Counted from the first letter of the stretch, positions 529-56,693 are shown. The stretch: DNA of 64,000 nt from an uncultured delta proteobacterium (GCA_963816395.1 CAWFKQ010000006.1:68324-132323); one strand, 5' to 3'. Notes: generated from the letters alone by a model not told the origin. A program made the numbers and translations.

Positions 529-2115
529 GTGAGCAATCAGCACCGCCAGGAAGTCGACCGCCGCCGCACCTTCGGCATCATCAGCCATCCCGATGCCGGC
601 AAAACCACCCTTACCGAGAAGCTGCTGCTGTTCGGCGGCGCCATCCAGATGGCCGGCGCGGTCAAATCGCGCAAGGCGGCGCGGCACGCCACCAGCGACT
701 GGATGGCGATGGAGCGCGAGCGCGGCATCTCGGTGACCACCTCGGTGATGCAGTTCGACTACCGGGATTACGAGGTGAATCTCCTCGATACCCCCGGTCA
801 CCAGGATTTCTCGGAAGACACCTACCGGGTGCTGACCGCCGTCGACAGCGCCCTGATGGTCATCGACAGCGCCAAGGGGGTGGAAACCCAGACCCGCAAG
901 CTGATGGAGGTCTGCCGCATGCGCAACACCCCCATCATCACCTTCATCAACAAGCTCGACCGCGAAGGGAGGGAGCCGCTGGAGCTGCTCTCCGACATCG
1001 AGGATACCCTGCAGATCGAGTGCGCGCCGCTGTCCTGGCCGATCGGCATGGGGAAGCGCTTCAAGGGGACCTACAATCTCTTCCGCAAGGAGCTGTTCCT
1101 GTTCACTCCCGGGCAGGACCGGGTCAGCCAGGACGGCGTGGTCATCAGGGATCTGAACGATCCGCAACTCGATAAACTGCTGGGGAGCCAGGCCGACGAG
1201 CTGCGGATGGATATCGAGCTGCTGGAAGGGGCGGCCAATCCCTTCGAGCTGGAGGAATACCTGAAGGGGAACCAGACGCCGGTCTTCTTCGGCAGCGCCA
1301 TCAACAACTTCGGGGTGCGCGAGCTGCTCGACGCCTTTGTCGAGCTGGCGCCGCCGCCGCGCCCGCGGCAGACCACCAGCCGCGAAGTTTCCCCCTACGA
1401 GGAGGGCTTCTCCGGCTTCGTCTTCAAGATCCAGGCGAACATGGACCCGGCGCACCGCGACCGGATCGCCTTCCTGCGCATCTGCTCCGGCAAGTTCACC
1501 CGCGGCATGAAGGTGAAGCATCACCGCATCGGCAAGGAGGTGGCGCTGGCCAACGCCACCATCTTCATGGCGCAGGACCGCAGCAATGTCGAGGAAGCCT
1601 GGCCCGGCGACATCATCGGCCTGCACAACCACGGCACGATCAAGATCGGCGACACCTTCACCGACCGGGAGCCGCTCAAGTTCACCGGCATCCCCAACTT
1701 CGCCCCCGAGCATTTCCGCCGGGTGCGGCTGAAGAATCCGCTCAAGGTCAAGCAGCTGGAAAAAGGATTGGTGCAGCTGGCGGAGGAGGGGGCGGTGCAG
1801 GTTTTTCGCCCGCTGATGGGGAGCGACTGGATTCTCGGGGCGGTGGGAGTGCTGCAGTTCGACGTGATCATCGCCCGGCTCAAGGACGAGTACGGGGTGG
1901 AAGCGGTTTACGAGGGGATCGAATACGCCACCGCCCGCTGGATCGACTGCACCGACCGCAAGCTGCTGGCCGAATTCGAGAAGAAGAACCAGGGCAATCT
2001 GGCCCACGATGCCGAGGGGAACCTCGCCTATCTCGCTCCGAGCGAATGGCGCCTCGGCCATACCATCGAGCAGTGGCCGGCGGTCATTTTCCACAAGACC
2101 AGGGAACATAACTGA
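529..2115 (+). CDS. prfC: peptide chain release factor 3
   Basis: ORF 493..2115. N-terminus [36 protein letters not shown] matches the RF3 GTPase G1 region. DTPGHQDF and NKLD motifs present. GTG at 529 chosen by alignment to the typical RF3 N-terminus. Confidence 0.93.
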
Positions 2116-2146
2116 AGCGGCAAGCTTCAAGCTTCGACTTCAAGAT
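2113..2146 (+). repeat. degenerate heptamer array starting at the prfC stop codon
   Basis: TGAAGCG GCAAGCT TCAAGCT TCGACT TCAAGAT read in 7-nt register. Confidence 0.7.
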
Positions 2147-2173
2147 AATCCAAATTTCCTTCGTATCTTTTCC

Positions 2174-2197
2174 CCTCCGCTTGCCGCTTGCCGCTAG
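2174..2197 (-). repeat. degenerate heptamer array abutting the kinase stop codon
   Basis: Plus strand reads CCTCCGC TTGCCGC TTGCCGC TAG. Minus strand reads TAG CGGCAAG CGGCAAG CGGAGG. Partly complementary to the array at 2113-2146. Confidence 0.7.
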
Positions 2198-4300
2198 GTT
2201 TCCGCCACCGGCAGCGTGAAATAAAACGTGCTCCCCTTCCCCAGGGTGCTCTCCGCCCAGATCCTGCCGCCGTGCGCCCGGATCACCTCCTGGACCAGGG
2301 CCAGGCCGAGGCCGATGCCGCCGGGAATGCGCCGGGCGCTGTCGTCCACCCGGTAGAAGCGGGTGAAGATCCTGCCCAGGGACTGGGGCGGAATGCCCAT
2401 CCCCTCGTCCTTCACCCAGATCCTGACCGTCTTCCCCTTCCGCTCCGCCCCGACCGTGACCGTCCCCCCTTCCGGCGAGTACTTGATGGCGTTTGACAGC
2501 AGGTTTTTCATGACCTGCTGCAGGCGCTTGGCATCTCCTGCGCACCGCCGGCAGGCCGGGCGGGCAGTCGAGCACCAGGCGATGCTTTTTCGAAGCGACG
2601 GCGAAAAGGTGCACCGCTTCCTGCAGCAGGTCATGAACCGAAAGGGCTTCGAACTGATAATTCTCCAACTGCGCCTGTAGCCGCTGCAGATCGAGGAAGT
2701 TGCTGATCAGTTCGTTCAGCCGCTCGGTTTCGCGGTGCACGGTTTGCAGGTATTCATGCTGCTGCTCCGGCGGCACCGGGTTTTCCAGGAGGAATTCGAC
2801 GAAGCCGAGCATGGCGGTCAGGGGGGTGCGCATCTCGTGGCTCACTGAGGAGATCATCTCGTCCTTCAGGTGCTCCATTCTCTTCTGCTCGGTAATGTCC
2901 TGGGCGATGTGCACGCCGCCCCACAGCTCTCCCGTCTCATCGAGGAGGGGATAGACCGAGAGGTGGTAATAGCGGTCGCTCTTCGGTTCATAGAGTTCCC
3001 CAACCTCCGGCAACCTGGATTTCAGCATCTGCGCAAACGGGCAGACCTCCTCCGACTTCCTCCAGGCCGAAATGAACCCGGCAATGCTTCCCGGTCAGCG
3101 GGCTCTGCGTTATGCTGTTCAGAAAGGAATGATTGGCCCGGTTCATTTTGAGGATCTTGCCCATTCCGGTCGAGAATGGCGACCGCGTCGGTGATCGCCT
3201 CGAAGGTCTGCGCCCATTCCTCTTCGCTGCGGCGCAGGTTCGCCTCCACCCGCCGCCGATCGGCAATCTCCTGCTGCAGATTGCGGTTGAGGTCCTCCAA
3301 CTCGGTCGAATAGACCAGGGCCTTGCCGGTCAGGGGGCGCAGCAGCAGAAAGATGCCGAAGCCGCCAAGGATCGAGAGGAACGCGGCGACCGCCAGCACC
3401 GAGGCGAACAGCCGATTGACATCGGCGTACAGGTCGGCCTGGTCCATGGTCACCAGCAGGCCCCAGCGGGTATGCCCGACCGGCGCATAGGCGACGATGT
3501 CCGGTTCCCCGTTCTGCTGCGCGCGCCCGCGCAGCAGCCCGGCTTTGCCCGCGGCTGCGGCCTGCAGGGCGGTGCCGTAAAGGGCGATCTCCGGGGCGGC
3601 GTTGTAGACCTCCCGTTCCCCGCGGCGGCCGGGAAAGAAAATTTCCGGTCGGCCGTCCCTGACCGTCCCCAGCAGGGAGTCGCCATTGTAGGGCATGTTC
3701 GTCGCTTCCCAGACGATCCGCTGCAGGTGCGCGATGGAGATAAGGATCAGTTCGAGTGCCGAGGAATTCTCCCTGCTCGCTACTGGATGGGGGCTGCGGC
3801 AAGCAGGTACGGCATGCCGGCGACGACCAGCGGGTCGGAAAGGGAGATCTGTCCAGTCGTCCGCGGGAATGGCTTCCTCCGGTACCCGGATCCCCACCTG
3901 CGTCACCCACTGTCCCTGGCGGTCACGGCAGGTGATCCCGGCGATTTCTCCAAAATCGGTGACGACCGGCAACAGGGCGTCCTGGAGGAGAGCCTGCAGC
4001 CTCTGCCGGGACAGTTTCCCCGCGTAATAGCCTGCCAGGGCGTCGCGGATCGGCTGCCTGTTCGCTACCAGCCGGGCGATGTCGAAGACTCGGGCGAGGT
4101 ATTCCTCGACCCCCAGCGTGCGCGCCCGCGCCAGATGGAGGAGGTTCGTTTTCCTCCGATTCCTTCAGCCGGTTGAAAAAAGGGAGAAGGGAAAGAAACG
4201 ATATGAGGATCAGGGCGGCCAGGGTATAGAGGACGGCATAGGCAACAGTTTTCCGCCGAAGGGATTCCAGCGGATTCTTGTTTCCTTTTGATTTCGGCAT
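2194..4300 (-). CDS. sensor histidine kinase (TM, periplasmic sensor, TM/HAMP, PAS, HisKA, HATPase_c); frame broken at least 5 times in this assembly
   Basis: ORF fragments 3923..4300, 3022..3972, 2988..3266, 2084..3028 and 2194..2634 join into one architecture. SHEMRTPLTAM H-box present. N/G boxes present: NLLSNAIKY, DEGMGIP, GGIGLGLALV. Confidence 0.8.
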
Positions 4301-4462
4301 GAAGACCGCCCAAGGGTAAATTTAAGGTCAATGATCAACTCTAGCAAACAGCGCCGGCGCGGCAATTTCCCAAATGGGGGGAATTGCCGCAGTTGCATCG
4401 GGGAGGAGGATAAAGGATAATAATAAATTCTTACCCATTTGTCTTCAGGAGAATGCATATCC

Positions 4463-5874: not shown

Positions 5875-5994
5875 ACGGCCGGCACTTCAATAGATTTCGC
5901 CGGGTGGAGCGCATGAAGCACAGCAACTCTCCCGAAACGCAGAACGGGTGATGGCATCGCCACCACCCGTCAGTTTTAGCAGGGACTCCAGTTT

Positions 5995-6190: not shown

Positions 6191-6216
6191 TAGGTTGGGA
6201 CAGCGCCGCGGATGCT

Positions 6217-7801: not shown

Positions 7802-7814
7802 CATCAGCCGTCTC

Positions 7815-7991
7815 TTAATCCTCCCAGTCGGGAATGTCCCTATACGTCACCGTCCGCCGGGGGTCGGAGGAAGGGCTGGCGCCGCAACGGGGGCAGACAG
7901 GTTCTGCGGGTTCCTCTTCCGGAGGTCCCTCAAAAGCGAGTTCGATCGGCTTGCCGGTGCAGGTGCAGTACCATTTTCGGAAAACGTCCAT
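7815..7991 (-). CDS. small zinc-ribbon-like protein (58 aa, below the ORF-track cutoff)
   Basis: Hand translation: MDVFRKWYCTCTGKPIELAFEGPPEEEPAEPVCPRCGASPSSDPRRTVTYRDIPDWED. Has CxC...CPRC cysteines. Preceded by GGGAGGGAGC. Confidence 0.4.
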   Translation of the reverse strand: MDVFRKWYCTCTGKPIELAFEGPPEEEPAEPVCPRCGASPSSDPRRTVTYRDIPDWED

Positions 7992-8056
7992 GCTCCCTCC
8001 CTACTGGCTCCAGCATCTCCCCTTCAGTATGACAAGGGATACGAATCAGGCAAGGG

Positions 8057-8098
8057 GTCCCTCTAGCCGCTTGCCTCTTGCCCCTCGTCCCTCGCCCC
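8057..8098 (-). repeat. six heptamers in perfect register abutting the trpS stop
   Basis: Minus strand after TAA reads GGGGCGA GGGACGA GGGGCAA GAGGCAA GCGGCTA GAGGGAC. Confidence 0.75.
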
Positions 8099-9073
8099 TT
8101 AATACGTCAATCCCGCCTTCTTGCGCACCTTGCGCATCGTCTTGACGGCAGTCTGCCGGGCTTTCTCGGCGCCGCGGGCGAGAACCGCGCGGATGGCGCC
8201 GGGATCGGCGAGCAGTTGCCGGCGATTTTCGGCGTAGGGGGCGAAGAAGTCCCGCACGGTTTCGAACAACTCCTGTTTCACTTCTCCGTAGGCCAGTCCC
8301 CCCGCGAGATAGCGCTGCCGCAGCGCCGCTTCCTGCTCCTTATCGAGAAACAGCCGATAGATCTGGAAGACATTGCACTTGTCGGGATCCTTCGGTTCCT
8401 CGACCGGCGTCGGGTCGGTCACGATCCGCATCACCTGCTTGCGCAGGGCGTTTTCCTCGAGGAAAAGGTCGATGGTGTTGCCGTAGCTCTTGCTCATCTT
8501 CTGGCCGTCCAGGCCGGGAACCGTCGCCACCTCCTCGTCGATTTCCGCCTCGGGGACGATGAACAGGTCGCCAAAATGGTTGTTGACCTTGATGGCGATA
8601 TCGCGCGCCACTTCCAGGTGCTGCTTCTGGTCCTTGCCTACCGGTACCCGCTCACTCTGAAACAGCAGAATGTCGGCGGTCATCAGCACCGGATAGGCGA
8701 ACAGCGCATGGTTGGCGGCAATCCCGCGTGAAACCTTATCCTTGTAGCTGTGGCAGCGCTCCAGCAGCCCCATCGGCGTGAAGGTGGAGAGAAACCAGGT
8801 CAGCTCCTGCACCTCCGGCAAGTCCGACTGCACCCAGAAGGTGCTCTTCTCCGGGTCCATTCCCAGGGCCAGGAAATTCGCCGCCGCCTCAATCGTCCCC
8901 CTCGCCAGCGCCTTGCCATCGGCAACCGAAGTCATGGCGTGGTAATTGGCGATAAAGCAGAACAGGTCCTCCTGGTCCTGATAGCCGATCATCTTCTTCA
9001 TCATGCCAAAATAGTTGCCCAGGTGGAGGGAGCCCGACGGCTGTATGCCGGAAAGAATGCGCATTTTCGTCAC
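8099..9073 (-). CDS. trpS: tryptophan--tRNA ligase
   Basis: Intact ORF. GIQPSGSLHLGNYFG (HIGH region) and KMSKS present. Start is GTG at 9073 or ATG at 9064; the latter has a GAAGGTGA SD. Confidence 0.93.
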   Translation of the reverse strand: MTKMRILSGIQPSGSLHLGNYFGMMKKMIGYQDQEDLFCFIANYHAMTSVADGKALARGTIEAAANFLALGMDPEKSTFWVQSDLPEVQELTWFLSTFTPMGLLERCHSYKDKVSRGIAANHALFAYPVLMTADILLFQSERVPVGKDQKQHLEVARDIAIKVNNHFGDLFIVPEAEIDEEVATVPGLDGQKMSKSYGNTIDLFLEENALRKQVMRIVTDPTPVEEPKDPDKCNVFQIYRLFLDKEQEAALRQRYLAGGLAYGEVKQELFETVRDFFAPYAENRRQLLADPGAIRAVLARGAEKARQTAVKTMRKVRKKAGLTY

Positions 9074-19058: not shown

Positions 19059-19524
19059 TCAGTGGAATACGAAAGAGTTGAGTTCGACCATCTCGTTTTT
19101 CTTCTCGTCCCCCCAGGCGACGGTGACCGTCACGATTTTCAGCTGCGGCAACGGGCTGTCCTCGAAACGCACCCGCCAGCGATACTCTTCGAAAGGTTCC
19201 TCGAAAGGCTTTTCCTCCGCCGCGCTGAAAGCGAAGCCGGGCTGAGACGCCTCGCTCTCGATCTCGCTCAGCCGCTGCTGCGCCAGCAGGGTGGCCTGGG
19301 TGATCTTCTGCAGCCGCTGGTTGATCGCGATGCTGCGGTTGCTCAGGCCGAGCAGGACGACCAGGGCGATGGCGACGATCGCCAGGGCGATCATGACTTC
19401 CAGCAGGGTGAAGCCCTGCTGGCGGGACGCGGAGCGCGGATTGCGGAACGCGGAAAAGGGCTTGGAAACGCTTTTCCCGCGTCCCGCGTCCCTCGTCCCT
19501 CGTCCCTTTGCCAGTCTGTTTCAT
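19059..19524 (-). CDS. gspI: type II secretion minor pseudopilin GspI (5' end carries a heptamer element and one frame change)
   Basis: QQGFTLLEVMIALAIVAIAL prepilin motif. The only coupled start is ATG 19524, which overlaps the gspH stop but lies in the +1 frame relative to the motif. Confidence 0.65.
19422..19512 (-). repeat. two-armed heptamer element inside the gspI 5' region
   Basis: Plus strand reads (GCGGGAC GCGGAGC GCGGATT GCGGAAC GCGGAAA), a spacer, then (CTTTTCC CGCGTCC CGCGTCC CTCGTCC CTCGTCC CTTTGCC). Each arm is in perfect 7-nt register and the arms are partly complementary. Confidence 0.8.
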
Positions 19525-20048
19525 TTCTGCGCTTCGAATTCCCGGTACCCCTGGTAGATCTTGGTGGCGCCGGTAAAAGGCATCAGCCGCAGGGTCAACA
19601 CCCGGTCGCCGCCATCGTCGAGATGGATCACCGTCTCATCCAGCCAGCCGACCGGATGAATATCGGCGGTCACCTCGCCGGAAGTGGATTTGCCCTTGCC
19701 CACCACCTCCACGTCGCGGAAGCGGACCGCCTTCTTCAGATGCTGCTGCCGCCCGGTGCCGGTGACCTCGACCAACTCGCCGTTTTCCTCCTGCCGCTTG
19801 GCCGCGAAGGTTTCCTCATCCAGGTCAAAGACCAGCCGGTAAGGACGGCCGGTGAGGGCGGACTCGTTGTAGAGGTATTTGACCGTGCCGGCCAGCCGGC
19901 GGGCCGAGGCATCGAGGCCATCCTCGCCGATGCCGGTCAGCATCGGCAGCGTCAGGGCCGAGAAGAGGCCGATCAGCAGGAGAACGACTGCCAGTTCGAT
20001 GAGGGTGAAGCCGGAGTTACTGGATTTCCCAGCTGTTGATATCGGCAT
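19521..20048 (-). CDS. gspH: type II secretion pseudopilin GspH
   Basis: SGFTLIELAVVLLLIGL prepilin motif. The start (ATG 20048 or 20057) overlaps the gspG 3' end. Confidence 0.65.
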   Translation of the reverse strand: MPISTAGKSSNSGFTLIELAVVLLLIGLFSALTLPMLTGIGEDGLDASARRLAGTVKYLYNESALTGRPYRLVFDLDEETFAAKRQEENGELVEVTGTGRQQHLKKAVRFRDVEVVGKGKSTSGEVTADIHPVGWLDETVIHLDDGGDRVLTLRLMPFTGATKIYQGYREFEAQK

Positions 20049-20466: not shown

Positions 20467-20539
20467 TGTCACTCCTTGTTGTCTCCAATCGATAGTTCTT
20501 TTCCAAGTTACAAGGCTTGAGGCCCAAGGGGGTGCCTGC

Positions 20540-20563
20540 TAGCCTCTAGCCTCTTAGCCTGCC
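20540..20563 (-). repeat. short heptamer array right after the gspF stop
   Basis: Plus strand reads TAGCCTC TAGCCTC TTAGCCTG. Minus strand after TAA reads AGGCAGG CTAAGAG GCTAGAG GCTAGCA. Confidence 0.6.
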
Positions 20564-26894: not shown

Positions 26895-29570
26895 ATGACC
26901 GCTCAACCCAAGCGCCTGTATCTCATCGACGGCTCCGGCTACATCTACCGGGCCTATTTCGCCATCCGCCATCTTTCCAACTCCAAGGGGCTGGCGACCA
27001 ACGCCATCTATGGCTTCACCAACATGCTGCTCAAGGTGGTGCGGGAGGAAAAGCCCGATCATCTGGCGGTGATCTTCGATGCCAAGGGGCCTTCCTTTCG
27101 CAAAGAGATCTATCCCGCATACAAGGCCAACCGGGTGGCGATGCCGGACGACCTGGTGCCGCAGATTCCGCTGATCAAGGAGGTGGTGCGCGGTTTCCGC
27201 ATGCCGGCCATCGAGCTGGCGGGCTACGAGGCGGACGATATCATCGCCACCCTGGCCCGCCGCTTCACCGCCGAAGGGATGGAGATCACCGTGGTCACCG
27301 GCGACAAGGACCTGATGCAGATCGTCGGCGAGCGGGTGCGCCTGTACGACACCATGCGCGAGAAGTTCTCCGGCCTGCCGGAGGTGGCGGAGCGCTTCGG
27401 CGGCCCGCCGGAGAAGGTGGCGGACGTGCTCGCCCTGGCCGGCGACACCTCGGACAACATTCCCGGGGTGCCGGGAATCGGCGAGAAGACGGCGCGGGAG
27501 TTGATCGCCGAATTCGGCTCGCTGGAGGACCTGCTGGCCAATATCGACAAGGTGAAGGGGGCCAAACGGCAGGAGAACCTGCGCACCTTCGCCGACCAGG
27601 CCCGGCTTTCGCGGCAACTGGTCCTGCTGCGCGAGGACCTCCCCCTGGAAGTCGACTATGACGACTTCGCCCTCTCGGCGCCGGATCGGGAGGCGCTGAC
27701 CGCCCTGTTCAAGGAGATGGAGTTCCACAAGCTGCTGCAGGAGTTCTCGGCCGACACCCGCACCACCGGCGAAGGCTATCACTGCGTCTTCACGCCCGAG
27801 GCCTTTGCGGCGATGGTCGTGGAACTGGAGCAGGCCGGGCGCTTCTGCCTGGACACCGAGACGACCAGCCTCGATCCGCTGCGGGCCGAGGTGGTCGGAC
27901 TCTCTTTCGCCGTGCGACCGCACGAGGCCTGGTATGTCCCCCTGGCGCACCGCTACCTGGGAGTGCCGCAGCAGCTCGACCGGCAGACGGTGCTGGAGCG
28001 GCTGCGGCCGCTGCTGGAAGATCCCGCCGTGCCGAAATGCGGCCAGAACCTCAAGTACGACGTCCTGGTGCTGCGCCGGGCCGGCATTCGCCTGGCGGGG
28101 CTCGGCTTCGACACCATGATCGCCTCCTACCTGGCGCAGCCGGCGGCCAAGTCGCACTCCCTCGATACCATGGCCGCCGAGCTTCTCGGGCATCAGATGA
28201 TCACCTACGGCGAATTGACCGGCAGCGGCAAGAAGCAGATCGGTTTCGAGGAAGTCGAATGCGACCGGGCGGCCATCTACTCGGCCGAGGACGCCGACAT
28301 CACCTTGCGCCTGATGGAGAAGCTGGCGCCGAGACTGGCCGAGACCGGCCAGGACAAACTCTTCCGCGAGGTGGAGATGGCGCTGCTGCCGGTGCTCATC
28401 GACATGGAATGGGCGGGGGTGCGCATCGACCCGGTCTTCCTGCGGCAGCTCAGCGGCGAACTGGCGGCGAAGCTGACGGCCCTGGAGACGAAGATCCACG
28501 AGATGTGCGGCGGACCGTTCAATATCGGCTCGCCCAAGCAGCTCGGGGAGGTTCTTTTCGGCCGGCTGAAGCTGGCCCGCGGCAAGCGCACCAAGACCGG
28601 CTGGTCCACCGATGTCGAGGTCCTCACCAAACTGGCCGAGGAGCACGAGGTCTGCGCCCGCATCCTCGACTACCGCTCCCTGGCCAAGCTGACCAGCACC
28701 TACACGGACAACCTGCCCAGGCTGATTCATCCCGGAAACCGGGCGCATCCACACCTCCTTCAACCAGACGGTGACCGCCACGGGACGGCTCTCCTCCAGC
28801 GACCCCAACCTGCAGAACATCCCCATCCGCACCGAGGAGGGGAGCCGCATCCGCGAGGCCTTCATCCCGGCCGAGGGGAACCTCCTGCTCTCCGCCGACT
28901 ACTCACAGGTGGAACTGCGCATCCTCGGCCACCTGGCCGCCGAGCCGGCGCTGGAGGAGAGTTTCGCCCGCGGCGAGGATATTCACCGGCGTACCGCCAG
29001 CGAGATCTTCGGCGTCTTTCCCGACCTGGTCACCGCCGAGATGCGCCGGCAGGCGAAGACGATCAACTTCGGCGTTATCTACGGGATGAGCGCCTTCGGC
29101 CTGGCCAAGGAACTGGGGATCGGCCGCCGCGAGGCGCAGGACTACATCGACAGCTACTTCGCCCGCTACCCGAAAGTCAAGGAATTCATGGACCGCAAGG
29201 TCGCCGAGGCGCGGGAGAAGCAGTTTGTCACCACCCTGCTCGGCCGGCGCTGCGCCATCCCGGAAATCCTCAGCCGGAACGGCGCGGTGCGCGCCTTTGC
29301 CGAGCGCAACGCCATCAATTACCCGATCCAGGGCTCGGCCGCCGACATCATCAAGGTAGCGATGGTCAACGTCCACCGGCGCCTGCAGCGGGAAGGGCTG
29401 GGCGCCCGCATGGTCCTGCAGGTGCATGACGAACTGGTCTTCGACGTTCCCGAGGCGGAACTGGCGGCGGTCACCGCCCTGGTCCGCGAGGAGATGGAAG
29501 GAGCCGTGCGGCTCGATGTCCCCCTGGTGGTCGACATCGGCACGGCCGCAACTGGCGCGAGGCGCATTGA
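26895..29570 (+). CDS. polA: DNA polymerase I (apparent frameshifts near 28733 and 29544)
   Basis: ORFs 26895..29429 and 28771..29586. 5'-3' exonuclease, 3'-5' exonuclease and polymerase motifs present (RRQAKTINFGVIYG, QVHDELVF). The canonical end GRNWREAH-TGA is recovered by a 1-nt shift (TGA 29568-29570). Confidence 0.9.
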
Positions 29571-29640
29571 AGCAGTGAGGCAGTAAGTAGTGTAGATAGT
29601 GAGGTAGTAAAAACTATCGCACTACCTCGCTATCTCGCTT
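29571..29640 (+). repeat. GTAG-rich periodic repeat/hairpin element right after the polA stop
   Basis: AGCAGTGAGGCAGTAAGTAGTGTAGATAGTGAGGTAGT ... ACTACCTCGCTATCT. Has a 15-bp inverted repeat, 29594-29608 / 29621-29635 (one G-U pair). Confidence 0.75.
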
Positions 29641-29659
29641 GTTTTCACCACGTGAAAAC
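29641..29659. promoter_or_regulatory. perfect inverted repeat GTTTTCAC-cac-GTGAAAAC (possible operator)
   Basis: 8-bp arms read directly. Located about 50 nt upstream of the oxidoreductase ATG, next to AT-rich sequence. Confidence 0.3.
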
Positions 29660-29706
29660 GATAGAATTATTCTAATTATTTTCATTGCGATCTTCTGGAG
29701 GAGAGA

Positions 29707-34788: not shown

Positions 34789-34814
34789 TTTCCGTAGGCA
34801 GGGGCGGATAGAAT

Positions 34815-34870
34815 GCAAGCCGCAAGCCGCAAGCCGCTAGCTGATAGCTGATAGCTGATAGCTGATTCCT
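34815..34870 (+). repeat. eight heptamers in perfect register between ydbH-like and the next gene
   Basis: GCAAGCC GCAAGCC GCAAGCC GCTAGCT GATAGCT GATAGCT GATAGCT GATTCCT, immediately followed by AGGAGG and ATG 34883. Confidence 0.9.
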
Positions 34871-34882
34871 AGGAGGTTCTCC

Positions 34883-35486: not shown

Positions 35487-36090
35487 ATGCGTTCAGTGAT
35501 AAGGGGGATGTGTACTCTCTTGGCCTTGTCAATTGTCGCGGCGGGCACTGCCGGCGCCGGCGAGATCAAGCCCTACCAGGCGCAAGGGATTGAACCGTAC
35601 CGATGCCCAGGAGATCCAACCCACTCAGGCCCAGGGCATCCAGCCCGCTCAGGCCCAGGGCATCCAGCCCTATCAGGCACCGGAGGTTCAGCCCGGCAAG
35701 GCAGGGGAAGTCGGGTCGCAGCGTTCCATGAACCGCCGGCCGAAAGAAAAAAACGAAAGGATAAAGCTGAGTTACTTTTTCCGCGTCTGGCATACCGGGG
35801 TACCGGGGGCGGTATGGCAGACGCCGAGCGAGGTGCCGGGTTACAACCGCCTGCACATCGCCCCGGCGTTGACTGCCGGCGACCTGACCATCTCACCGGA
35901 GGGGCTTTACGCCTGGAATTCCTACGGCGGCAAGACGGGGAAGTGGGTCCGGGGCAACTGCGCCTATCCGGTCGTTCTCATCGACACCGTCGAGAACAAG
36001 CGCTGGCAGGTCGGGTACGACCCCAGGCACACCGGCGGGCGGGACATCATCATCTGGGACGGATCGATCTGGTACGACGGCAGGAAATAG
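35487..36090 (+). CDS. secreted protein with six octapeptide repeats (I/V-x-P-x-x-A-x-G/E) and an uncharacterised C-terminal domain (frameshift near 35598)
   Basis: Signal peptide in ORF 35487.. joins frame 35533..36090. Has 24-nt tandem repeats at about 35566-35710, one unit being 25 nt. Confidence 0.55.
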
Positions 36091-39696: not shown

Positions 39697-39745
39697 GGTC
39701 AAGCTTGACAAAAGGAATAAAAGGGGTCAAGCTTGACAAAAGGAG
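39697..39745 (+). repeat. two direct copies of the palindrome-containing repeat GGTCAAGCTTGACAAAAGGA (left flank of the Y1 transposase)
   Basis: Copies at 39697-39716 and 39725-39744, embedded in GGAATAAAAGGG reiterations. Confidence 0.85.
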
Positions 39746-39766: not shown

Positions 39767-40723
39767 ATGCCACGTAAACCTCGACTTCATTACCCCGGAG
39801 CCGTTTACCACGTAATTCTTCGCGGCAATAGCGGGCAGGATATATTCTTCGATGCGGGCGACCGCACACGTTTTTTCCTGCTGCTGCAGGAAAGCGTTGA
39901 ACGTTTCGGGCACCGTGTCCATGCCTTTTGCCTGATGACGACACACCTCCATCTGGCAATCCAGGTGGGGGATATCCCCCTCTCCCGCATCATGCAGAAC
40001 ATCGGATTTCGTTATACGCAGTTCATCAACAGGAAATATCGGCGAACCGGCCATCTATTTCAAGGGAGGTACAAACCGCTACTGATCGATGCCGACACCT
40101 ACCTGTTGGAGTTGATCCGCTACATCCACCTTAACCCTGTCAGGGCCGGAATGGTATCTCAGCCGGAAGAGTATCCCTGGTCCAGCCATTGCAGCTACTT
40201 AGGGGCTGCCCCCAGGCCGCCATGGTTGACTTTTGAATGGGCGCTGGCACAGTTCGCAGAACAGAAAGGCCTGGCTGCCGAGCGATTCAAGACGTTTGTA
40301 GATGGCGGGATGGGAGAGGGACACAGGAAGGATTTCCACCGGGGCTCCTTCGAAGGTCGTGCCCTCGGGAATGATACATTTATCGATCAGGCATTACTAA
40401 AGGCCGAAGAAAATAAACGTGCCGGCATCACCCTGCCTCAGGTCATTGAAGCTGTCTGCTCGACATATCAACTGAGTACTGCGGAATTGTGCGCTCCGGG
40501 AAAAGCGCAGCCGGCCGCTGAGGCAAGAGCTGTCACCGCCTTCTTTGTAAGGAATGCCGAGTCTCTACTCCTGCGCGATCTGGCGAGTTTTCTAAACAGG
40601 GATCTTTCAGGCCTAAGCCAGGCAGCACTTCGGATCAGGCGGCGATCTGGCGAGGATGATCAATTGCGGATTACACTGGAGAGGGTATCTGAAAAGGTAA
40701 GAATCTCCTTTTGTCAAGCTTGA
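39767..40723 (+). CDS. IS200/RayT-like Y1 (HUH) transposase with a DnaA-C-like HTH tail
   Basis: AVYHVILRGN, CLMTTHLHLAI (HUH), RTGHLFQGRYK and YIHLNPVRAG. C-terminal 90 aa resemble DnaA domain IV. Confidence 0.8.
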   Translation: MPRKPRLHYPGAVYHVILRGNSGQDIFFDAGDRTRFFLLLQESVERFGHRVHAFCLMTTHLHLAIQVGDIPLSRIMQNIGFRYTQFINRKYRRTGHLFQGRYKPLLIDADTYLLELIRYIHLNPVRAGMVSQPEEYPWSSHCSYLGAAPRPPWLTFEWALAQFAEQKGLAAERFKTFVDGGMGEGHRKDFHRGSFEGRALGNDTFIDQALLKAEENKRAGITLPQVIEAVCSTYQLSTAELCAPGKAQPAAEARAVTAFFVRNAESLLLRDLASFLNRDLSGLSQAALRIRRRSGEDDQLRITLERVSEKVRISFCQA

Positions 40724-40725
40724 CC
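40705..40725 (+). repeat. inverted copy of the flank repeat (CTCCTTTTGTCAAGCTTGACC), right flank, interrupted by the intron
   Basis: Reverse complement of 39725-39745. Overlaps the last codons and stop of the transposase gene. The match continues at 42638-42642. Confidence 0.85.
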
Positions 40726-41201
40726 GTACGCAGTAACAGTTGAATATCTAACGGGTTTAAGTCCCGTCCGAGGAGTTGTCCGTTCGCCTCGGTAGCTCAA
40801 GGGAGCGGCGCTCTGGCAACAGGGGGTCGTAAGTTCCCAATTGGCAAAGCAACAGGCCGTAACGCAAGTGAACCTAGACGTAGCCTCGTAATTGTGATGA
40901 AGATGCCGACCCTGTGGTCAGAAGGGGAAGGCCGTCGTTACAGACTCTGAAAACGGAAACAGTCTGTGTAATCTTCCGGGGTAGCAGGGGCGGCATGTTG
41001 TGGAAGATATTTCAGCCCAGTGCTGGAGACCCGTTGCGGCGATGTTGAGGAACATCAACCGGCGCGTATAAGGCAACGAAATCGCGTTGGGCCGTATCGG
41101 GAGTCGGAGGGGTCCATAGTACCGTTTGAGGAGCTGGGACAACATAACCCGCTTCGAGGGAAGGGACCCTGCTTTGTTCACGCAACCGAAGTGCAGAGGA
41201 G

Positions 41202-42554
41202 ATGGGGATTGCAGCGATGCTAACAACCCCGGAAACAATCAGGACGCTACAGAGGAAGCTCTATCGCAAGGCCAAGCAGGAGCCGGCCTGCCGCTTCCAC
41301 GCCTTGTACGACAAGGTCTACCGGGCTGATATCCTCAGTCACGCCTATGCCCTTGTCCGCGCCAAGAAGGGTAGCGCCGGCATTGACGGCGTCACCTTCG
41401 AAGTCATCGAGGCAAACGAAGGGGTCACCGCATTCATTGCGGAGCTGGAAGAAGCACTGAGAAACAAGACGTACAAACCCGATCCCGTCAAACGGGTCAT
41501 GATACCAAAGAGCGACGGCAGTCAACGTCCTCTCGGTATTCCGACTATCCGGGACCGGGTGGCGCAGATGGCCACAAAGTTGGTCATCGAGCCGATCTTC
41601 GAAGCGGATTTCTGCAAAACATCCTACGGATTCAGACCGAGGAAGTCAGCCCATGACGCAGTCGATGATGTTTCCAAGGCCATGAACACCGGCTACACCG
41701 AAGTCATCGATGCCGATCTTTCTAAATACTTCGACACCATTCCTCACGCCAATCTCATGACCGTGGTCGCCGAACGCATCTGCGACGGCGCGATCCTGCA
41801 CTTGATCCAGATGTGGCTCAAGGCGCCGGTTATGGAGGAGGACAAGGACGGGACGAAGCGGAATATCGGCGGCGGCAAGGGTAACTGCAGAGGGACGCCG
41901 CAGGGCGGGGTCATCTCACCGTTGCTGTCCAATCTCTACCTGCACCTACTGGACAGGATATGGGAGCGGAAGAACCTGCAACAACGGCTGGGCGCCCGCA
42001 TCGTCAGATATGCGGACGATATTGTCATTCTCTGCCGGCGAAGTAAGTCCGAGCAGGCCATGGCGGTTTTGCGGCAAATACTGGAGCGATTGGAACTAAC
42101 CCTGAACGAGGCAAAGACCAAAATAGTCAATGCTTACAAGGGACAGTTCGACTTTCTCGGATTCACGATGTGGATGGGAAAAAGCAGAAGGACGGGCAAT
42201 TACTACTCGCACGTCCAGCCGTCGAAAAAGTCCCTGAAGGCGATCGCGGGCCGCGTAACTGAACTCACAAAGAGAGTGAAAGCGCCCGTGCCGATTGAGA
42301 GGATTGTGAAGGAAGTAAATGCAGCCGTTCGCGGTTGGGTCGGTTACTTTCATTTCAAAAATTGTAGCAAGACGCTATCTCATGTGCGACAGCACGTGGA
42401 AGAGCGGCTACGAACACACCTTCGCAAGCGGCACAAGATCAAAGGCAGGGGGGCCGGGTTTGCCCGGTTCGGCAGCCGAATCCTCTACGAGAATTACGGG
42501 TTGTATAAGGTGCCGACAACAGCGGGTTGGACAAGGGCGCATGCCCTGCGGTGA
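41202..42554 (+). CDS. group II intron reverse transcriptase/maturase (no endonuclease domain)
   Basis: RT blocks GIDGVTFE, RPLGIPTIRDRV, FRPRKSAHDA and YADDIVILC. Maturase RGWVGYFHF. 450 aa. Confidence 0.92.
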   Translation: MGIAAMLTTPETIRTLQRKLYRKAKQEPACRFHALYDKVYRADILSHAYALVRAKKGSAGIDGVTFEVIEANEGVTAFIAELEEALRNKTYKPDPVKRVMIPKSDGSQRPLGIPTIRDRVAQMATKLVIEPIFEADFCKTSYGFRPRKSAHDAVDDVSKAMNTGYTEVIDADLSKYFDTIPHANLMTVVAERICDGAILHLIQMWLKAPVMEEDKDGTKRNIGGGKGNCRGTPQGGVISPLLSNLYLHLLDRIWERKNLQQRLGARIVRYADDIVILCRRSKSEQAMAVLRQILERLELTLNEAKTKIVNAYKGQFDFLGFTMWMGKSRRTGNYYSHVQPSKKSLKAIAGRVTELTKRVKAPVPIERIVKEVNAAVRGWVGYFHFKNCSKTLSHVRQHVEERLRTHLRKRHKIKGRGAGFARFGSRILYENYGLYKVPTTAGWTRAHALR

Positions 42555-42566
42555 AGAACATCGGAA

Positions 42567-42637
42567 AGCCGTGTGCGGGAGAACCGCATGCACGGTTTGA
42601 TGAGGGGGGGCAGGGTGACACCTGTTCTCTACTCTAC
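42567..42637 (+). ncRNA. group II intron ribozyme domains V and VI
   Basis: Domain V: AGCCGUGUGCGG-GAGAA-CCGCAUGCACGGUU with the AGC triad and a 2-nt bulge. Domain VI: GAGGGGGGGCAGG-GUGACA-CCUGUUCUCU-A-CUC. Confidence 0.7.
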
Positions 42638-44241: not shown

Positions 44242-44283
44242 TCACGCGTAACTGTTCAGTTCAGAGGAACGGGAAGGCTTCTT

Positions 44284-44372
44284 AACGCAAAGGGCGCAAA
44301 GAAGAACGAAGGCGCAAAGAAACCGAAGCCGAATTCTGATGTTCTTGATTTCAACCTTTGCGCCTTTGCGTT
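44284..44372 (+). repeat. purine-rich reiterated element with a 17-nt inverted repeat
   Basis: AACGCAAAGGGCGCAAAG (44284-44301), a third GGCGCAAAG copy, then CTTTGCGCCTTTGCGTT (44356-44372). Confidence 0.75.
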
Positions 44373-44402
44373 GAAGATTTAAGCCTTTGAAAGGAGCGAA
44401 AA

Positions 44403-46307: not shown

Positions 46308-46500
46308 AAAATCTCCTCCTTTGCAACATGTCACCGGAAGTTGTTCTCCGGCGCGTTCCTTCCATTGGTGGCTCACGTACAAAAAGATATCAGCCATTTG
46401 CAGGGATACAACCGGTGGCGGGAGGAATTGGGTGGTTTGCGGAGGGTATTTCAATCTCCAGCCTGGAATTTGTCCGGCTGGCATTTTTCGGCTAAACTCC

Positions 46501-46556
46501 AGTCAGGTAGTGAGTAGCCGGAATTACTACCTCACTATCTTACTACTCACTCGGGG
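46501..46556 (+). repeat. GTAG-rich periodic element related to the one after polA
   Basis: AGTCAGGTAGTGAGTAGCCGGAATTACTACCTCACTATCTTACTACTCACT. The 15-mer ACTACCTCACTATCT (46526-46540) differs at one base from 29621-29635. Confidence 0.75.
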
Positions 46557-47346: not shown

Positions 47347-48103
47347 ATGAATGTCCACCTTTCCGACGCCATTATCCTGCGCCATTTCGATTATGGCGAG
47401 TCGGACCGCATCGTCACTTTCCTCACTCCGGATCAGGGGCGGCTGAAAGGGTTCGCCCGCGGCGCCCGCAACAGCCGGCGCCGATTCGGCCCGGCCCTTG
47501 AGCCTTTTGCCCGGGTGCGCCTGCACTGGAGCCTCGGCCGCGGTGAGCTGGTCACCCTCAAAGAGGCCGAACTGCTCGATCTGCGGGCCGGGCTGCGCGC
47601 CGACCTGGCGGCGATCGCCCTGGCCGGTTACGGCTGCGAACTGGTGGAGGAGCTTCTCGGGGAGGCGCACGGGCATCCGGGAGCCTTTGCCCTGCTGGAG
47701 GCCTTTCTCGACCATCTGACCGTGCACGGGGCAGCGCCCGAGGCCCGCCTGCTGTTCGAACTGCGCCTGTTGCAGGAGGCGGGCTACCTTCCGCACCTGC
47801 TGCACTGTGCCGAATGCGGGGTGACTCCTCCGCGACCCGGAAGCCGCTTTCGACCCGGTCCGCGGCGGCAGTCTCTGCCCCGCCTGCGCCGGCGTCGCCC
47901 GGCGCCTCTCCCTGGGCACCCTGGGGAGCCTGGCCCGACTGCTGCGGGCGCCGGCCACAGCCTTCGACGGGGTCCGATTGGGGGAACGCACGCTCGGGGA
48001 AGGCGGAACGGCCCTGTCGGCCGCCCTGCGCCAGCATCTGTCGCGCCCTCTGCGCAGCCTGCCGTTTCTCGATCAGGTGATGGAGAGAAGCTATAAGCTG
48101 TAA
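47347..48103 (+). CDS. recO: DNA repair protein RecO (apparent frameshift near 47825)
   Basis: MNVHLSDAIILRHFDYGESDRIVTFLTPDQGRLKGFARGARNSRRRF. After CAECG the third frame continues ...CPACAG...LPFLDQVMERSYKL to TAA 48101-48103. Confidence 0.8.
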
Positions 48104-48106
48104 GCG
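48086..48106 (+). repeat. three heptamers spanning the recO stop
   Basis: AGAAGCT ATAAGCT GTAAGCG. Confidence 0.55.
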
Positions 48107-48149
48107 GTTATCGGGGCTTTTGAACCACGCTTTTTAGTCGTGCAGAAGC

Positions 48150-48259: not shown

Positions 48260-49223
<964 letters not shown>

Positions 49224-49234
<11 letters not shown>

Positions 49235-51293: not shown

Positions 51294-51295
51294 CC

Positions 51296-51311: not shown

Positions 51312-51481
51312 GAGGACGCCTGTTCGCAGGTGTCCGCGAGGGGATTTCGGCCGGCCCGTTCGACGCCAGCCGGTAAATTTTGGGTGTTTTATTCACTTTA
51401 CTAAAAAAGCTGGAGGAAGATTTAATGGCAATCAAGGCAGAGAAGGAGAGGCTCAAGGTCGTCAAAGAGGAGGAGACCGCG

Positions 51482-54145
<2,664 letters not shown>

Positions 54146-54182
54146 GGCGCAGCACCCCCAAGCCCAACTGTGTGTGGCATGC

Positions 54183-54214
54183 AAGCCCCCGGGGTTTCCC
54201 CGGGGGCTTTTTTT
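54183..54214 (+). terminator. intrinsic terminator AAGCCCCCGGGG-ttt-CCCCGGGGGCTT followed by T7
   Basis: 12-bp stem and U-tract, 38 nt after the ppdK stop. Confidence 0.85.
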
Positions 54215-54221
54215 AATGAGA

Positions 54222-54250
54222 TTGACCGAGGCGTTGAAAGCAGGTAATCT
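54222..54250 (+). promoter_or_regulatory. sigma70 promoter TTGACC, 17 nt, TAATCT
   Basis: Read directly. Upstream of the PAS-GGDEF gene. Confidence 0.45.
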
Positions 54251-54285
54251 TTACTATAACGCTATTCAATTACGAAGGGCTGACC

Positions 54286-55179: not shown

Positions 55180-55299
55180 TCCGGTTGTATTCCCCTCCGC
55201 CATGAACGAAAAGCGAGTGACGGCTTGAACGGTCCTGCCGCCGAACCGCCGGCGGCCGGGCACGACCCGGGCGTAACCCTGAGAGGCGGCGGAAGCGCC

Positions 55300-55328
55300 T
55301 TGACACACCCGGGGGCGGATGGTATAAA
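55300..55328 (+). promoter_or_regulatory. near-consensus sigma70 promoter TTGACA, 17 nt, TATAAA
   Basis: Hexamers and spacing read directly. Confidence 0.5.
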
Positions 55329-55362
55329 AGGTGCCCGTAGCATTCATCCCTGAACCGATGAA

Positions 55363-55387
55363 ACCACAGGTTTCCTGTGGTTTTTTT
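55363..55387 (+). terminator. intrinsic terminator ACCACAGG-ttt-CCTGTGGT followed by T7, only about 30 nt downstream of the predicted start site
   Basis: 8-bp stem and U-tract. The next ATG is at 55406. Confidence 0.6.
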
Positions 55388-55405
55388 CTTTGAGAAAGAA
55401 GAGAG

Positions 55406-55840
55406 ATGTCGAAGCGACCCCTGACTGCCGGAGACGATGTCGAGGCCCGCTGCACCCGCTGCCGGGAGGTGACCAACCATACCGTGGTCGCCCTGGTGGA
55501 AGGGCGGGTGGCGCGCGTCCAGTGTCATATCTGCGACGGAGTGCACAACTATCACGCGCCCGCTGCCACCCGCACCCCTCGTCCCCCTGCACCCAAACCC
55601 GTGGCCCGGGCGCCTCGCCCCCGCCGCAATTCCGCAGCCGCCGAACTGGCCGAGTGGGAAGAGGTTACCGGCCCTGCCGAGAAGGACACCGCGCTTCCTT
55701 ATGCCATGAACCTCCGGTGCCGGGCCGGCGACCTGCTGCGGCACCCGGTCTTCGGCCTCGGGGTGGTCAAGGTTCTGGTTCCTCCGGGAAAAATGGAAGT
55801 CCTCTTTCAGATGGGGAAAAAGCTCCTGCGGTGTGGGTAG
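55406..55840 (+). CDS. zinc-ribbon-containing hypothetical protein (144 aa)
   Basis: CTRC...CHIC pairs, a Pro/Arg-rich linker and a small C-terminal domain. Confidence 0.55.
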   Translation: MSKRPLTAGDDVEARCTRCREVTNHTVVALVEGRVARVQCHICDGVHNYHAPAATRTPRPPAPKPVARAPRPRRNSAAAELAEWEEVTGPAEKDTALPYAMNLRCRAGDLLRHPVFGLGVVKVLVPPGKMEVLFQMGKKLLRCG

Positions 55841-55880
55841 CGGTCGCGAGGGCCGGGGAGTAGGGGGGTGCGAGAAGCGG

Positions 55881-56615
55881 ATGGATTTTCCCTTTTTGCA
55901 TGACTGGCAGATGGATTACCGGCAGGCGGTGGCGCTGCAACGAATACTGGCCGAGCGCCTCGTTTGCCGCAACTGCCTGCCCCGGCCGGTACGCACGGTG
56001 GCCGGAGTGGACGTCTCCTACGAGAAGCACGGCCAGCTGTTTTTCGCCGGCATCGTCGTGCTGTCGCTGCCCGCCCTGGAAGTGCTGGAGGAGGCATCCG
56101 CCGTGGGGCGGGTTTCCTTCCCCTACATCCCCGGCCTCCTGTCCTTCCGCGAACTGCCTATTCTCCTCGAGGCCTTCCGCTCTTTGCGCACCGTTCCCGA
56201 CGCCATTCTGGTCGACGGCCAGGGGATGGCCCATCCGCGGCGCCTCGGCCTGGCGAGCCATCTCGGGCTATGGCTGGAGCTGCCGACGGTCGGTTGCGCC
56301 AAGAGCCGGCTGTGCGGCGAGCACCCGGAGCCGGGCGAGCGGCGGGGAGACCAGGTTCCGCTGCGGCTGGCAGGGGAGGATGTCGGGGTGGTGCTCACCA
56401 CCCGCGACCGGATCAAGCCCCTCTATATTTCTCCCGGGCACAAGATCGATATCGCCGCCGCCGCCGATCTGGTTCTCGCCTGCGGCCGCCGCTACCGCCT
56501 GCCGGAACCGACCCGCCTGGCGCACCACCTGACCAACCGCCTGCGGCGGGAAGAGCAAAGCTGCAAGCTCTCAGCTATAAGCTCCAAGCTAGAAGCAAGC
56601 TCCGCCAAAAAATAA
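55881..56615 (+). CDS. nfi: endonuclease V
   Basis: VAGVDVSY, YIPGLLSFRELP, DGQGMAHPRRLGLASHLG and ISPGH motifs. The last 15 or so codons are encoded by the heptamer array. Confidence 0.85.
   Translation: MDFPFLHDWQMDYRQAVALQRILAERLVCRNCLPRPVRTVAGVDVSYEKHGQLFFAGIVVLSLPALEVLEEASAVGRVSFPYIPGLLSFRELPILLEAFRSLRTVPDAILVDGQGMAHPRRLGLASHLGLWLELPTVGCAKSRLCGEHPEPGERRGDQVPLRLAGEDVGVVLTTRDRIKPLYISPGHKIDIAAAADLVLACGRRYRLPEPTRLAHHLTNRLRREEQSCKLSAISSKLEASSAKK
56555..56601 (+). repeat. heptamer array (NNAAGCT type) at the nfi 3' end
   Basis: AGCT recurs at exact 7-nt spacing five times (ending at 56562, 56569, 56576, 56583 and 56590): GCAAGCT CTCAGCT ATAAGCT CCAAGCT AGAAGCA. Confidence 0.85.
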
Positions 56616-56646
56616 AGCGGAAGGCGACATTCTCTCCGCCTTCCGC
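56606..56646 (-). terminator. hairpin GCGGAAGGCG / CGCCTTCCGC with a U-tract in the minus orientation
   Basis: 10-bp stem. The A-rich tract on the plus side becomes TTTATTTTTT on the minus strand. Confidence 0.5.
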
Positions 56647-56658
56647 CGCCTAGCTGTT

Positions 56659-56693
56659 TGCCGCCTGCCTCCTGCCGCCTGCCGCTTGCCTAG
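56659..56693 (-). repeat. five heptamers abutting the stop of the DUF2520 gene
   Basis: Plus strand reads TGCCGCC TGCCTCC TGCCGCC TGCCGCT TGCCTAG. Minus strand after TAG reads GCAAGCG GCAGGCG GCAGGAG GCAGGCG GCA. Confidence 0.85.

Follow-up and report, generated by a model that had tools for sequence, protein, structure and literature searches.

Why should tandem repeats of seven nucleotides accumulate directly behind bacterial stop codons? An intergenic excess of 7-base repeats has been reported since 2007 and has been catalogued in Geobacter since 2009, with neither a mechanism nor a function attached to it. A Desulfuromonas-like genome is now added by a 64,000-nucleotide stretch from an uncultured delta proteobacterium (GCA_963816395.1, CAWFKQ010000006.1:68324-132323; the whole stretch is called the window below), in which an initial annotation listed twelve loci of heptamer arrays. 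Comparison of these arrays with one another and with orthologous positions indicates that they are built and continually remodelled by unit-wise slippage, that they are anchored at stop codons and oriented with transcription, and that some junctions keep position, period and pairing through sequence turnover. Whether slippage-built arrays are also retained as transcribed 3' or intercistronic stem-loops, with a function that we infer, seems to us evenly poised.

The window has a G+C content of 63.6%. Its TrpS is 89-91% identical to those of Desulfuromonas carbonis, Desulfuromonas sp. TF and several metagenomic Desulfuromonadales, and a RecO-based metagenome scan returned distant relatives only (at most 69% identity). 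Loci of related or comparison genomes carry L numbers (L017, L033, L089-L100 etc.); the Geobacter metallireducens repeat families are known here through their catalogue, and the present genome through these 64 kb. Frameshifts in genes expected to be intact suggest an error-prone assembly: polA switches reading frame near 28.74 kb (~28740-28760) and again near 29.54 kb (~29544), a shift near its C-terminus resembling the loss of a G within a G run, and the histidine kinase gene switches at least twice (~2540, ~3100-3160). Because both genes carry several frameshifts, single-base irregularities in repeat units are possibly sequencing or assembly errors.

The seven-nucleotide period

Across the whole window, six regions reach at least 17 of 21 self-matches at lag 7, against 0.00 in 50 block shuffles, and none does so at periods of 4, 5, 8, 10, 11 or 13; a drop-off segment score finds five period-7 regions where 0.05 are expected. 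The claim that 7-nt periodicity exceeds a shuffled control is thereby borne out, and the arrays fall into clear register once laid out in rows of seven. Tested locus by locus, nine of the twelve listed loci are significantly periodic at 7 nt. Lag 7 is the best lag (P<0.0005) at 2113-2146, 2174-2197, 8057-8098, 19422-19460, 19467-19512, 34815-34870, 48086-48106, 49131-49155, 49160-49209, 56555-56601 and 56659-56693, with a weaker signal at 20540-20563 (P=0.0185). At the other three loci (29571-29645, 44284-44372 and 46501-46556) lag 7 is not significant in the same test (P 0.22-0.97) and the best lags are 4 or 8, or 11 for 44284-44330; these are real hairpins on 4/8-nt repeats, not heptameric ones. 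The initial description is thus sound in its anatomy but overstated in its reach.

Tandem 7-nt units beyond chance length, the property that defines long heptanucleotide simple-sequence repeats, are thus present. Copies are near-perfect at 34815-34870 and in the tenfold array at L092 3412-3486, while other arrays are mostly 56-80% self-matching. The former locus consists of two abutting blocks, (GCAAGCC)x3-4 and (TAGCTGA)x4, at 34812-34872 on the plus strand (95-100% matches in Tandem Repeats Finder, TRF; lag-7 self-matching 0.90); it reaches the Shine-Dalgarno sequence of a DUF1318 gene and forms no hairpin (z +1.35). Near-perfect blocks there and the (CTTCATC)x10 array in L092 indicate that expansion is ongoing.

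Position behind stop codons

Seven arrays begin one base past a stop codon or include it, namely those of prfC, a histidine kinase gene, trpS, gspF, polA, recO and a DUF2520 gene. The convergent spacer between prfC and the kinase gene is filled by a hairpin. Its 5' arm, an nnAAGCn array at 2116-2146 on the plus strand (lag-7 self-matching 0.56, P<0.0005), starts one base past the prfC stop (TGA, 2113-2115); its 3' arm, an AAGCGGC array at 2170-2193 on the minus strand (0.76), starts one base past the kinase stop (TAG, 2194-2196, minus), the frame that terminates at 2194 containing a HATPase_c domain. Each gene of this convergent pair accordingly has its own arm, as had been described, and the hairpin (z -4.6 relative to shuffles) includes a 10-bp perfect stem, AGCGGCAAGC/GCTTGCCGCT. 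Behind trpS, a six-unit purine-rich CnAGnGG array (8055-8098, minus; 0.71) follows the TAA stop (8099-8101, minus) directly. A short CTAGAGG / GAGGCTA array (20528-20556, minus; P=0.0185) includes the gspF stop (20554-20556, minus), and its unit recurs at L094 4412. The recO stop (TAA, 48094-48096) lies inside a three-unit nAAGCTn array in the recO-glyQ spacer (48080-48108, plus; 0.79), and the polA tract directly follows a TGA at 29568 once the frameshift is corrected.

At the DUF2520 gene, a six-unit purine-rich GnGGCAG array (56648-56689, minus; 0.79) sits between the TAG stop (56690-56692, minus) and a clean intrinsic terminator (56647-56616, minus; 12-bp stem and TTATTTTTT tail) that is downstream of the array and separate from it. 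Because of this placement the array is 3' untranslated region (UTR) sequence and not a terminator. Nor do the arrays otherwise fit the pattern of a GC-rich stem-loop with a U tract directly behind it: no terminator-like site was called at the polA hairpin, and the clean terminator just named is the only one near an array. Most arrays are not canonical terminators, as had been stated, since a proper terminator lies behind one of them and operon interiors contain several (gspH-gspI, recO-glyQ-glyS).

Adjacency to stops, claimed as typical of the arrays, holds for the seven named above; elsewhere the gspH array begins ~8 nt past its stop, and the distance from the likely stop is ~26 nt for the array at 34815 and ~41 nt for that at 44284. 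Two further open reading frames (ORFs), glyQ and nfi, have a conserved C-terminus without a stop, and reading continues into the array for 36 codons in glyQ (a 36-aa tail after the conserved LLKK) and ~16-19 codons in nfi. The nfi array has seven GCTnnAA units (56553-56603, plus; 0.62) and supplies the final ~16 codons of the endonuclease V ORF, whose Pfam domain ends at residue 232 of 260. The arrays are, in agreement with the initial annotation, not coding repeats in origin.

The association extends to gene ends in bulk. Over 60 gene ends, the first 21 post-stop comparisons give a mean of 6.92 matches at lag 7 and 5.3-5.75 at other lags, and at least 12 matches are reached at 4 of the 60 ends at lag 7, compared with 0-1 at other lags. 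TrpS and RF3 C-termini are conserved in relatives, therefore these two stops are ancestral and their arrays abut them. The stop codon as part of the repeat unit was a candidate that was dropped, since a hand count finds the base 7 nt downstream identical for 9 of 21 stop bases, which does not clearly exceed background. Backup stops in three frames were likewise rejected: the 42 nt past eight stops close 10 frames where 8.7 would be expected (P=0.32) and contain 16 stop triplets where 11.8 would be (P=0.066).

Strand orientation and folding

Rows of seven confirm that the gene-adjacent arm is purine-rich on the mRNA strand. Every hairpin in the window has its purine-rich arm first, and in single arms purines predominate on the upstream gene's strand. 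Purine arms as Shine-Dalgarno decoys were considered and set aside: their mean anti-Shine-Dalgarno duplex energy is -2.51 against -2.53 in composition-matched shuffles, and their strongest sites are weaker than those of the shuffles, although the units are rich in AGG (15 of 25 against 8.5, P=0.0055). Folds more stable than shuffles (z -3.4 to -4.6) occur at 2105-2205, 19410-19525, 29560-29650, 44270-44385 and 49115-49225. The outer stem pairing decays and the arms homogenise independently. Rfam covariance models matched no array at gathering score; the sole array match at E<=0.5 is the mir-17 microRNA-precursor model on the polA hairpin (25 bits against 49.5, E 0.2), read here as generic hairpin resemblance.

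Turnover at orthologous junctions

Orthologous regions in relatives vary in unit number and sequence. The interval from the trpS stop to a conserved TGTCATACTG is hypervariable: an array abuts the stop in the window, a different heptad hairpin lies 5 nt past it in L092, a TCAGG hairpin lies farther on in L091, L094 shows other palindromes, and L089 and L093 are bare. The place of the window's heptad hairpin at the prfC/kinase junction is taken in D. carbonis by a canonical bidirectional terminator. The gspF 3' flank is periodic at lag 7 (P 0.0007-0.008) in four of five lineages, starting a few bases from the stop and using three unrelated units; the periodicity is found at this position in L097, L099 and L100, with differing units.

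Two side observations concern the trpS region and its relatives. The TGTCATACTG motif (~7960-7975, minus) lies between trpS and a small Cys-rich ORF (MDVFRKWYCTC...), is kept in all trpS relatives (L089, L091-L095) within otherwise hypervariable sequence, and may be a promoter -10 region or an operator. Behind a small gene of a metagenomic relative, L092 3412-3486 is a perfect (CTTCATC)x10 array that is pyrimidine-rich on the sense strand, unlike the window arrays.

The most informative junction is a hairpin at 19418-19514 (minus), in the interval from the gspH stop to the gspI GFTLLE motif, within the gspI leader (ΔG -57.8, z -4.1). Its purine-rich (R) arm at 19467-19514 comprises five (A/C)GGGACG units plus GGGAAAAG, and its pyrimidine-rich (Y) arm at 19418-19460 comprises five TCCGCGn units. 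GspI homologues have leaders that are either short, or long and an in-frame translation of heptad hairpins, the long ones including five of the type described below as H4 (e.g. MKGTLKGRGSRDERRGK...FRVPRSASRQQG|FTLLE) and four of a TCAGG type. Translation runs in frame through the orthologous elements of L096, L097, L099 and L100. Both arms are periodic (0.53-0.81) in these four and in the window, and their complementarity is 0.68-0.76 (P 0.003-0.043); the five differ in unit variants and numbers, and each arm is homogenised separately.

In the window, gspI (19394-19524, minus) is cut off from its start codon by a frame break within the hairpin-encoded leader, and the source annotation gives a truncated 111-aa GspI without the prepilin cleavage motif. 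This break, together with a unit length that is not a multiple of three, is what speaks for contingency loci, in which gain or loss of units would shift frame or spacing and switch neighbouring genes on or off, an idea raised in the initial annotation. The break is a 1-nt length difference (ATG to CAGCAG, 103 nt in the window and 102 nt in L096), not 7, so an extra heptad as its origin was withdrawn; the assembly has frameshifts in polA and the kinase gene as well, the leader is in frame in five relatives, and most arrays are degenerate and lie behind housekeeping genes. With the gspI leader break of an error-prone assembly as its only instance, switching by slippage is extremely improbable.

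In the glyQ-glyS spacer, a hairpin at 49124-49215 (plus; z -4.3), into which the glyQ ORF reads, has an R arm of (AATCAGG/TTTCAGG)x3 and a Y arm of (TACCTGA/AACCGGA...)x6, and its unit is identical at L091 11021. Heptad hairpins occupy this spacer from the stop to the Shine-Dalgarno sequence in L017 (Syntrophaceae) and L033 (Nitrospiria) also. A hairpin conserved in every glyQ-glyS spacer is a generalisation that holds only in part: strong folds (z below -3) occur in the window, L009, L017, L028 and L033, and folding is weak elsewhere. In a set of 80 glyQ loci spanning many phyla, arrays of period 7 outnumber those of every other non-multiple-of-three period tested, at a density ~1/10 of the window's. 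Units at non-orthologous sites match exactly across species in three cases against 0.38 expected (P=0.0065).

Slippage and possible retention as stem-loops

Slippage remodelling is indicated because there are near-perfect blocks, because units are homogenised arm by arm, and because orthologous arrays keep their position but change unit and copy number. In the evenly poised proposal with which we began, the resulting element would consist of 3-8 degenerate 7-nt units lying in tandem within the transcribed spacer right 3' of a stop, purine-rich on the mRNA strand and often followed by a complementary pyrimidine run that would give a long imperfect hairpin, purine arm first. Such arrays may take positions where relatives have ordinary hairpins or terminators (trpS, prfC/kinase) and may persist as harmless or mildly useful 3'-UTR or intercistronic stem-loops or spacers. 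The purine-first layout could keep C-rich RNA from emerging unpaired behind the terminating ribosome, so that Rho would not be invited.

Several points weigh against this proposal. The stem-loop role is deduced purely from position, and exact abutment to the stop codon is not what slippage alone predicts. Five arrays (8057, 20540, 34815, 48086 and 56550) have no significant fold and no partner arm. The purine-rich rule is broken twice in relatives, at L092 3412 and L094 4412. Fold stability hardly differs between the sense and antisense strands, which leaves selection at the RNA level undemonstrated and made strand selection via G-U pairs uninformative as a candidate. The trpS and prfC arrays are absent from congeners, which fits neutrality as well as function, and retention in the gspI leader possibly reflects only that a precise in-frame deletion would be needed to remove the element.

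These points bear on a competing account, in which the arrays are neutral or selfish by-products of a replication machinery that makes heptanucleotide repeats at a high rate, without host function, and survive only where they do no harm, i.e. a few bases behind stops and in cleavable leader peptides. Array gain and loss between congeners at trpS and prfC/kinase, independent homogenisation of the arms with decay of outer pairing, the glyQ and nfi ORFs that simply continue into arrays, and the negative outcome of every specific functional test are all as this account expects, and no regulatory role was found for similar Xanthomonas repeats (PMC4692102). It fits poorly with 7 of 13 arrays starting exactly at the stop, with hairpins that consistently have the purine arm first, with particular units recurring between species, with a periodicity at the gspF stop that survives three unit replacements, and with five gspI-leader orthologues that retain both arms and their complementarity. 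We regard by-products as a real possibility, though on balance a doubtful one.

The retention proposal also has a bolder relative, which we think unlikely: post-stop heptad arrays would be a functional but sequence-independent RNA class in Desulfuromonadales, Syntrophales, Nitrospirota and others, with the period itself under selection. Either a factor working in 7-nt steps, or hairpins tolerant of register, might gate the fate of the mRNA after the terminating ribosome departs, through Rho access, re-initiation or 3'-end decay. If so, position and period would therefore outlast unit replacement, and different families would recolonise the same junctions.

Stop-codon anchoring, the keeping of position, period and pairing through unit replacement (gspF 3' end, gspI leader) and in-frame carriage in a cleavable leader peptide offer three concrete handles on these repeats. 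If the anchoring is functional, a widespread and unrecognised layer of post-termination control would come into view; if it is not, the arrays would be a clean natural system for polymerase slippage in 7-nt steps. Either way they cause annotation errors in the form of extended C-termini, fused ORFs and truncated gspI calls. Why seven bases, and why there, are questions that experiments on the type II secretion and glyQS operons can now address.

Relation to known repeat families

The initial annotation could name no established family that fits; two are now apparent, the second as a looser fit. Aklujkar et al. (2009) catalogued in G. metallireducens 49 Gmet_H4 'regulatory RNA elements' of four GGGACCG heptads, aligned as (GGGACCG)x4 + GGGAAAA (PMC2700814). 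In 15 of the 39 copies listed there, a stop triplet (TAA, TAG or TGA) occupies one alignment column five bases before the first unit, and most entries of Table S4 as available are described as 3' of one gene and 5' of the next (an operon) or lie within genes, e.g. in linkers of fused proteins. The gspH-gspI element corresponds in unit, tail and location. On the minus strand, 19467-19514 reads AGGGACG x3 and CGGGACG x2 (6/7 identity to the unit) and its tail is ...CGGGACGCGGGAAAAGCG, where the listed G. metallireducens copies have ...GGGGACCGGGAAAACC; it lies at an operon junction with a paired Y arm at 19418-19460 and in-frame translation in L096, L097, L099 and L100. As far as the catalogue's accessible entries go, both carry their G-rich sequence on the upstream gene's strand, with a stop just upstream in many copies, and both occur as plus/minus pairs 60-100 nt apart, between operon genes or in frame inside genes; they differ in the end of the unit, GGGACCG in Gmet_H4 and GGGACG[A/C] in the window. 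Gmet_H4-type loci number two in the 64 kb, 8055-8098 being a degenerate version (CGAGGGA, CGAGGGG). The accessible parts of that catalogue give Gmet_H4 no function and mention nothing on stop-codon anchoring (PMC2700814).

The second, looser fit is to class-3 'predicted global regulator binding sites' of the same catalogue, entered there as paired opposite-strand arrays of five MTYCTGA heptads at variable distance, for which IHF/HU binding was proposed (PMC2700814). Compared with these entries, the glyQ-glyS hairpin (49124-49215) and L091 11021-11099 likewise use TCAGG/CCTGA with purine-then-pyrimidine pairing, and the window element is likewise 3' of one gene and 5' of the next, whereas its Y-arm units are degenerate (TACCTGA, AACCGGA, TACCGGT). 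At 49124-49215 the R arm has three TCAGG units and the Y arm two clean CCTGA units plus four degenerate ones, L091 11021-11099 matches CTCCTGA exactly, and the class-3 unit is that of a hairpin after trpS in Desulfuromonas sp. TF.

The omega repressor of pSM19035, a ribbon-helix-helix protein, is established to bind heptad arrays. It gives a precedent for reading the window's arrays, in line with one role suggested in the initial annotation, as binding platforms for a putative protein that reads 7-nt or 7-bp steps, whether on DNA (IHF/HU, or a ribbon-helix-helix protein like omega) or on RNA (a single-strand binder of 3' UTRs). A fixed period, preferred units common to several species, some 4-5 units per arm and the global-regulator sites proposed in the catalogue (PMC2700814) are in keeping with a platform. 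The 64 kb hold at least five unrelated units, replaced at a fixed position, which makes one sequence-specific reader unlikely; the arrays lie at gene ends, not at promoters, and no candidate protein accompanies the idea. We consider a platform improbable.

Outside Geobacter, heptanucleotides are reported to be the commonest long simple-sequence repeat in many prokaryotes (PMC4679880), an excess reported by Mrazek et al. (2007), and a property of the replicative polymerase has been proposed in the literature as the origin of the 7-nt ruler. Xanthomonas GGGAATC repeats are 89-93% intergenic, mostly of four units and on average 28 nt behind the upstream ORF, to which they are nearer than to the next; they include 70 convergent inverted pairs able to form stem-loops, are positionally conserved between species with variable length and sequence, and are transcribed, with no function found (PMC4692102). 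These and the Nostoc repeats resemble the window's in having 7-nt units in ~4 copies, intergenic and close behind the upstream ORF, with convergent pairs; they differ in having one dominant G-rich unit, whereas the window has at least five unit types, mostly without G tracts, that abut the stop. TAACTGA direct repeats of marine Beggiatoaceae, cyanobacteria and Bacteroidetes (MacGregor 2015, PMC4679880) and cyanobacterial STRR heptamers share the abundance of intergenic arrays, of 2-6 copies, with an unexplained phylogenetic distribution, and TAACTGA has the CTGA core in common with the TCAGG/CCTGA family; they lie just upstream of start codons and are nearly all direct, whereas the window arrays lie behind stops and are often paired. 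In G. bemidjiensis, multicopy sequences, some of them 6-42 nt direct repeats, occupy 12% of intergenic regions. The window's arrays are best read as members of the Geobacter-catalogued families and of this known, unexplained intergenic excess of 7-base repeats. Their units are 7 nt and contiguous, unlike the 24-48-nt repeats with unique spacers of CRISPRs, which had correctly been set aside.

G tracts suggest a further reading, that GGG-containing arrays (8055-8098, 19467-19514) form G-quadruplexes on the mRNA or the non-template DNA. The R arm of the window has five G3 tracts with 4-nt loops and the catalogued G. metallireducens H4 has four, and the GGGAATC repeats of Xanthomonas and GGGGAYT repeats of Nostoc were shown to fold into quadruplexes in vitro (Rehm et al. 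2015, PMC4692102). The orthologues in L096, L099 and L100 have only 2-3 G3 tracts, and most window arrays lack any, so quadruplexes are very improbable; as a conserved feature they were rejected, the tracts varying from 2 to 5 among gspI-leader orthologues.

REP elements can stabilise upstream mRNA. Like them and their BIME and REPIN relatives, the window arrays are extragenic, lie at gene 3' ends or between cistrons, form hairpins and belong to genome-specific multi-copy families. The REP/BIME-like suggestion of the initial annotation therefore stands for position and hairpin form, while membership fails: REP families have one conserved palindrome and flank a RAYT gene, whereas the window arrays have a period in common and not a sequence, with units that vary by locus and a common 15-mer only in the 29594/46526 pair. 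The hairpin pairs could still be REP/REPIN-like mobile elements spread by a RAYT-type transposase such as that encoded at 39767-40723. They are inverted pairs at gene ends, the encoded Y1_Tnp protein shows a full-length match to the REP-associated tyrosine transposase model, and the gspI-leader site is held by different families in different lineages. The match scores below the cutoff (69.6 against 80 bits), the gene is flanked by GTCAAGCTTGACAAAAGG and not by heptad arrays, the trpS and glyQ comparisons reveal no target-site duplications or sharp boundaries, and variation in unit number indicates slippage in situ. Mobility of this kind is quite improbable, and the narrower candidate, in which heptad arrays would serve the local RAYT-like gene as its REPs, gains no support from that gene's GTCAAGCTTGACAAAAGG flanks.

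The RAYT-like ORF (39767-40723, plus) has an IS200-like Y1 transposase domain and a DnaA-C-like helix-turn-helix, its model match being end to end in NCBIfam. Its flanks (39698-39743, 40707-40724) carry two direct copies and one inverted copy of GTCAAGCTTGACAAAAGG, an 18-mer with no other copy in the window, and 12- and 28-nt tandem repeats lie upstream. Inserted ~35 nt past it is a group II intron (40758-42637, plus) with Rfam D1-D4 and domain V/VI matches and a reverse transcriptase/maturase ORF (41202-42554).

Non-heptameric hairpins and minor repeats

The polA hairpin (29571-29645, plus; z -3.7) follows the TGA stop at 29568-29570 directly and consists of 4/8-nt AGTGAGGT-like repeats. An exact 15-mer, ACTACCTCACTATCT, occurs at 29594 (minus) and at 46526 (plus), the latter within an AGTGAGG/ACTACCTC family hairpin of period 4/8 (46499-46556, plus) upstream of a histidine-phosphatase gene; the two hairpins are one dispersed family. 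A third, with 8-9-nt repeats GCGCAAAG / CCTTTGCG (44282-44376, plus; z -3.4; TRF period 8), lies upstream of a hemerythrin gene. The polA hairpin is followed at once by a perfect palindrome, GTTTTCACCACGTGAAAAC (29642-29660, plus), that precedes the next gene and looks like a putative regulator binding site. Elsewhere, a 24-nt tandem repeat at 35605-35678 (plus; 3.1 copies, 88% matches), in an ORF without a Pfam match, is probably a coding 8-residue repeat.

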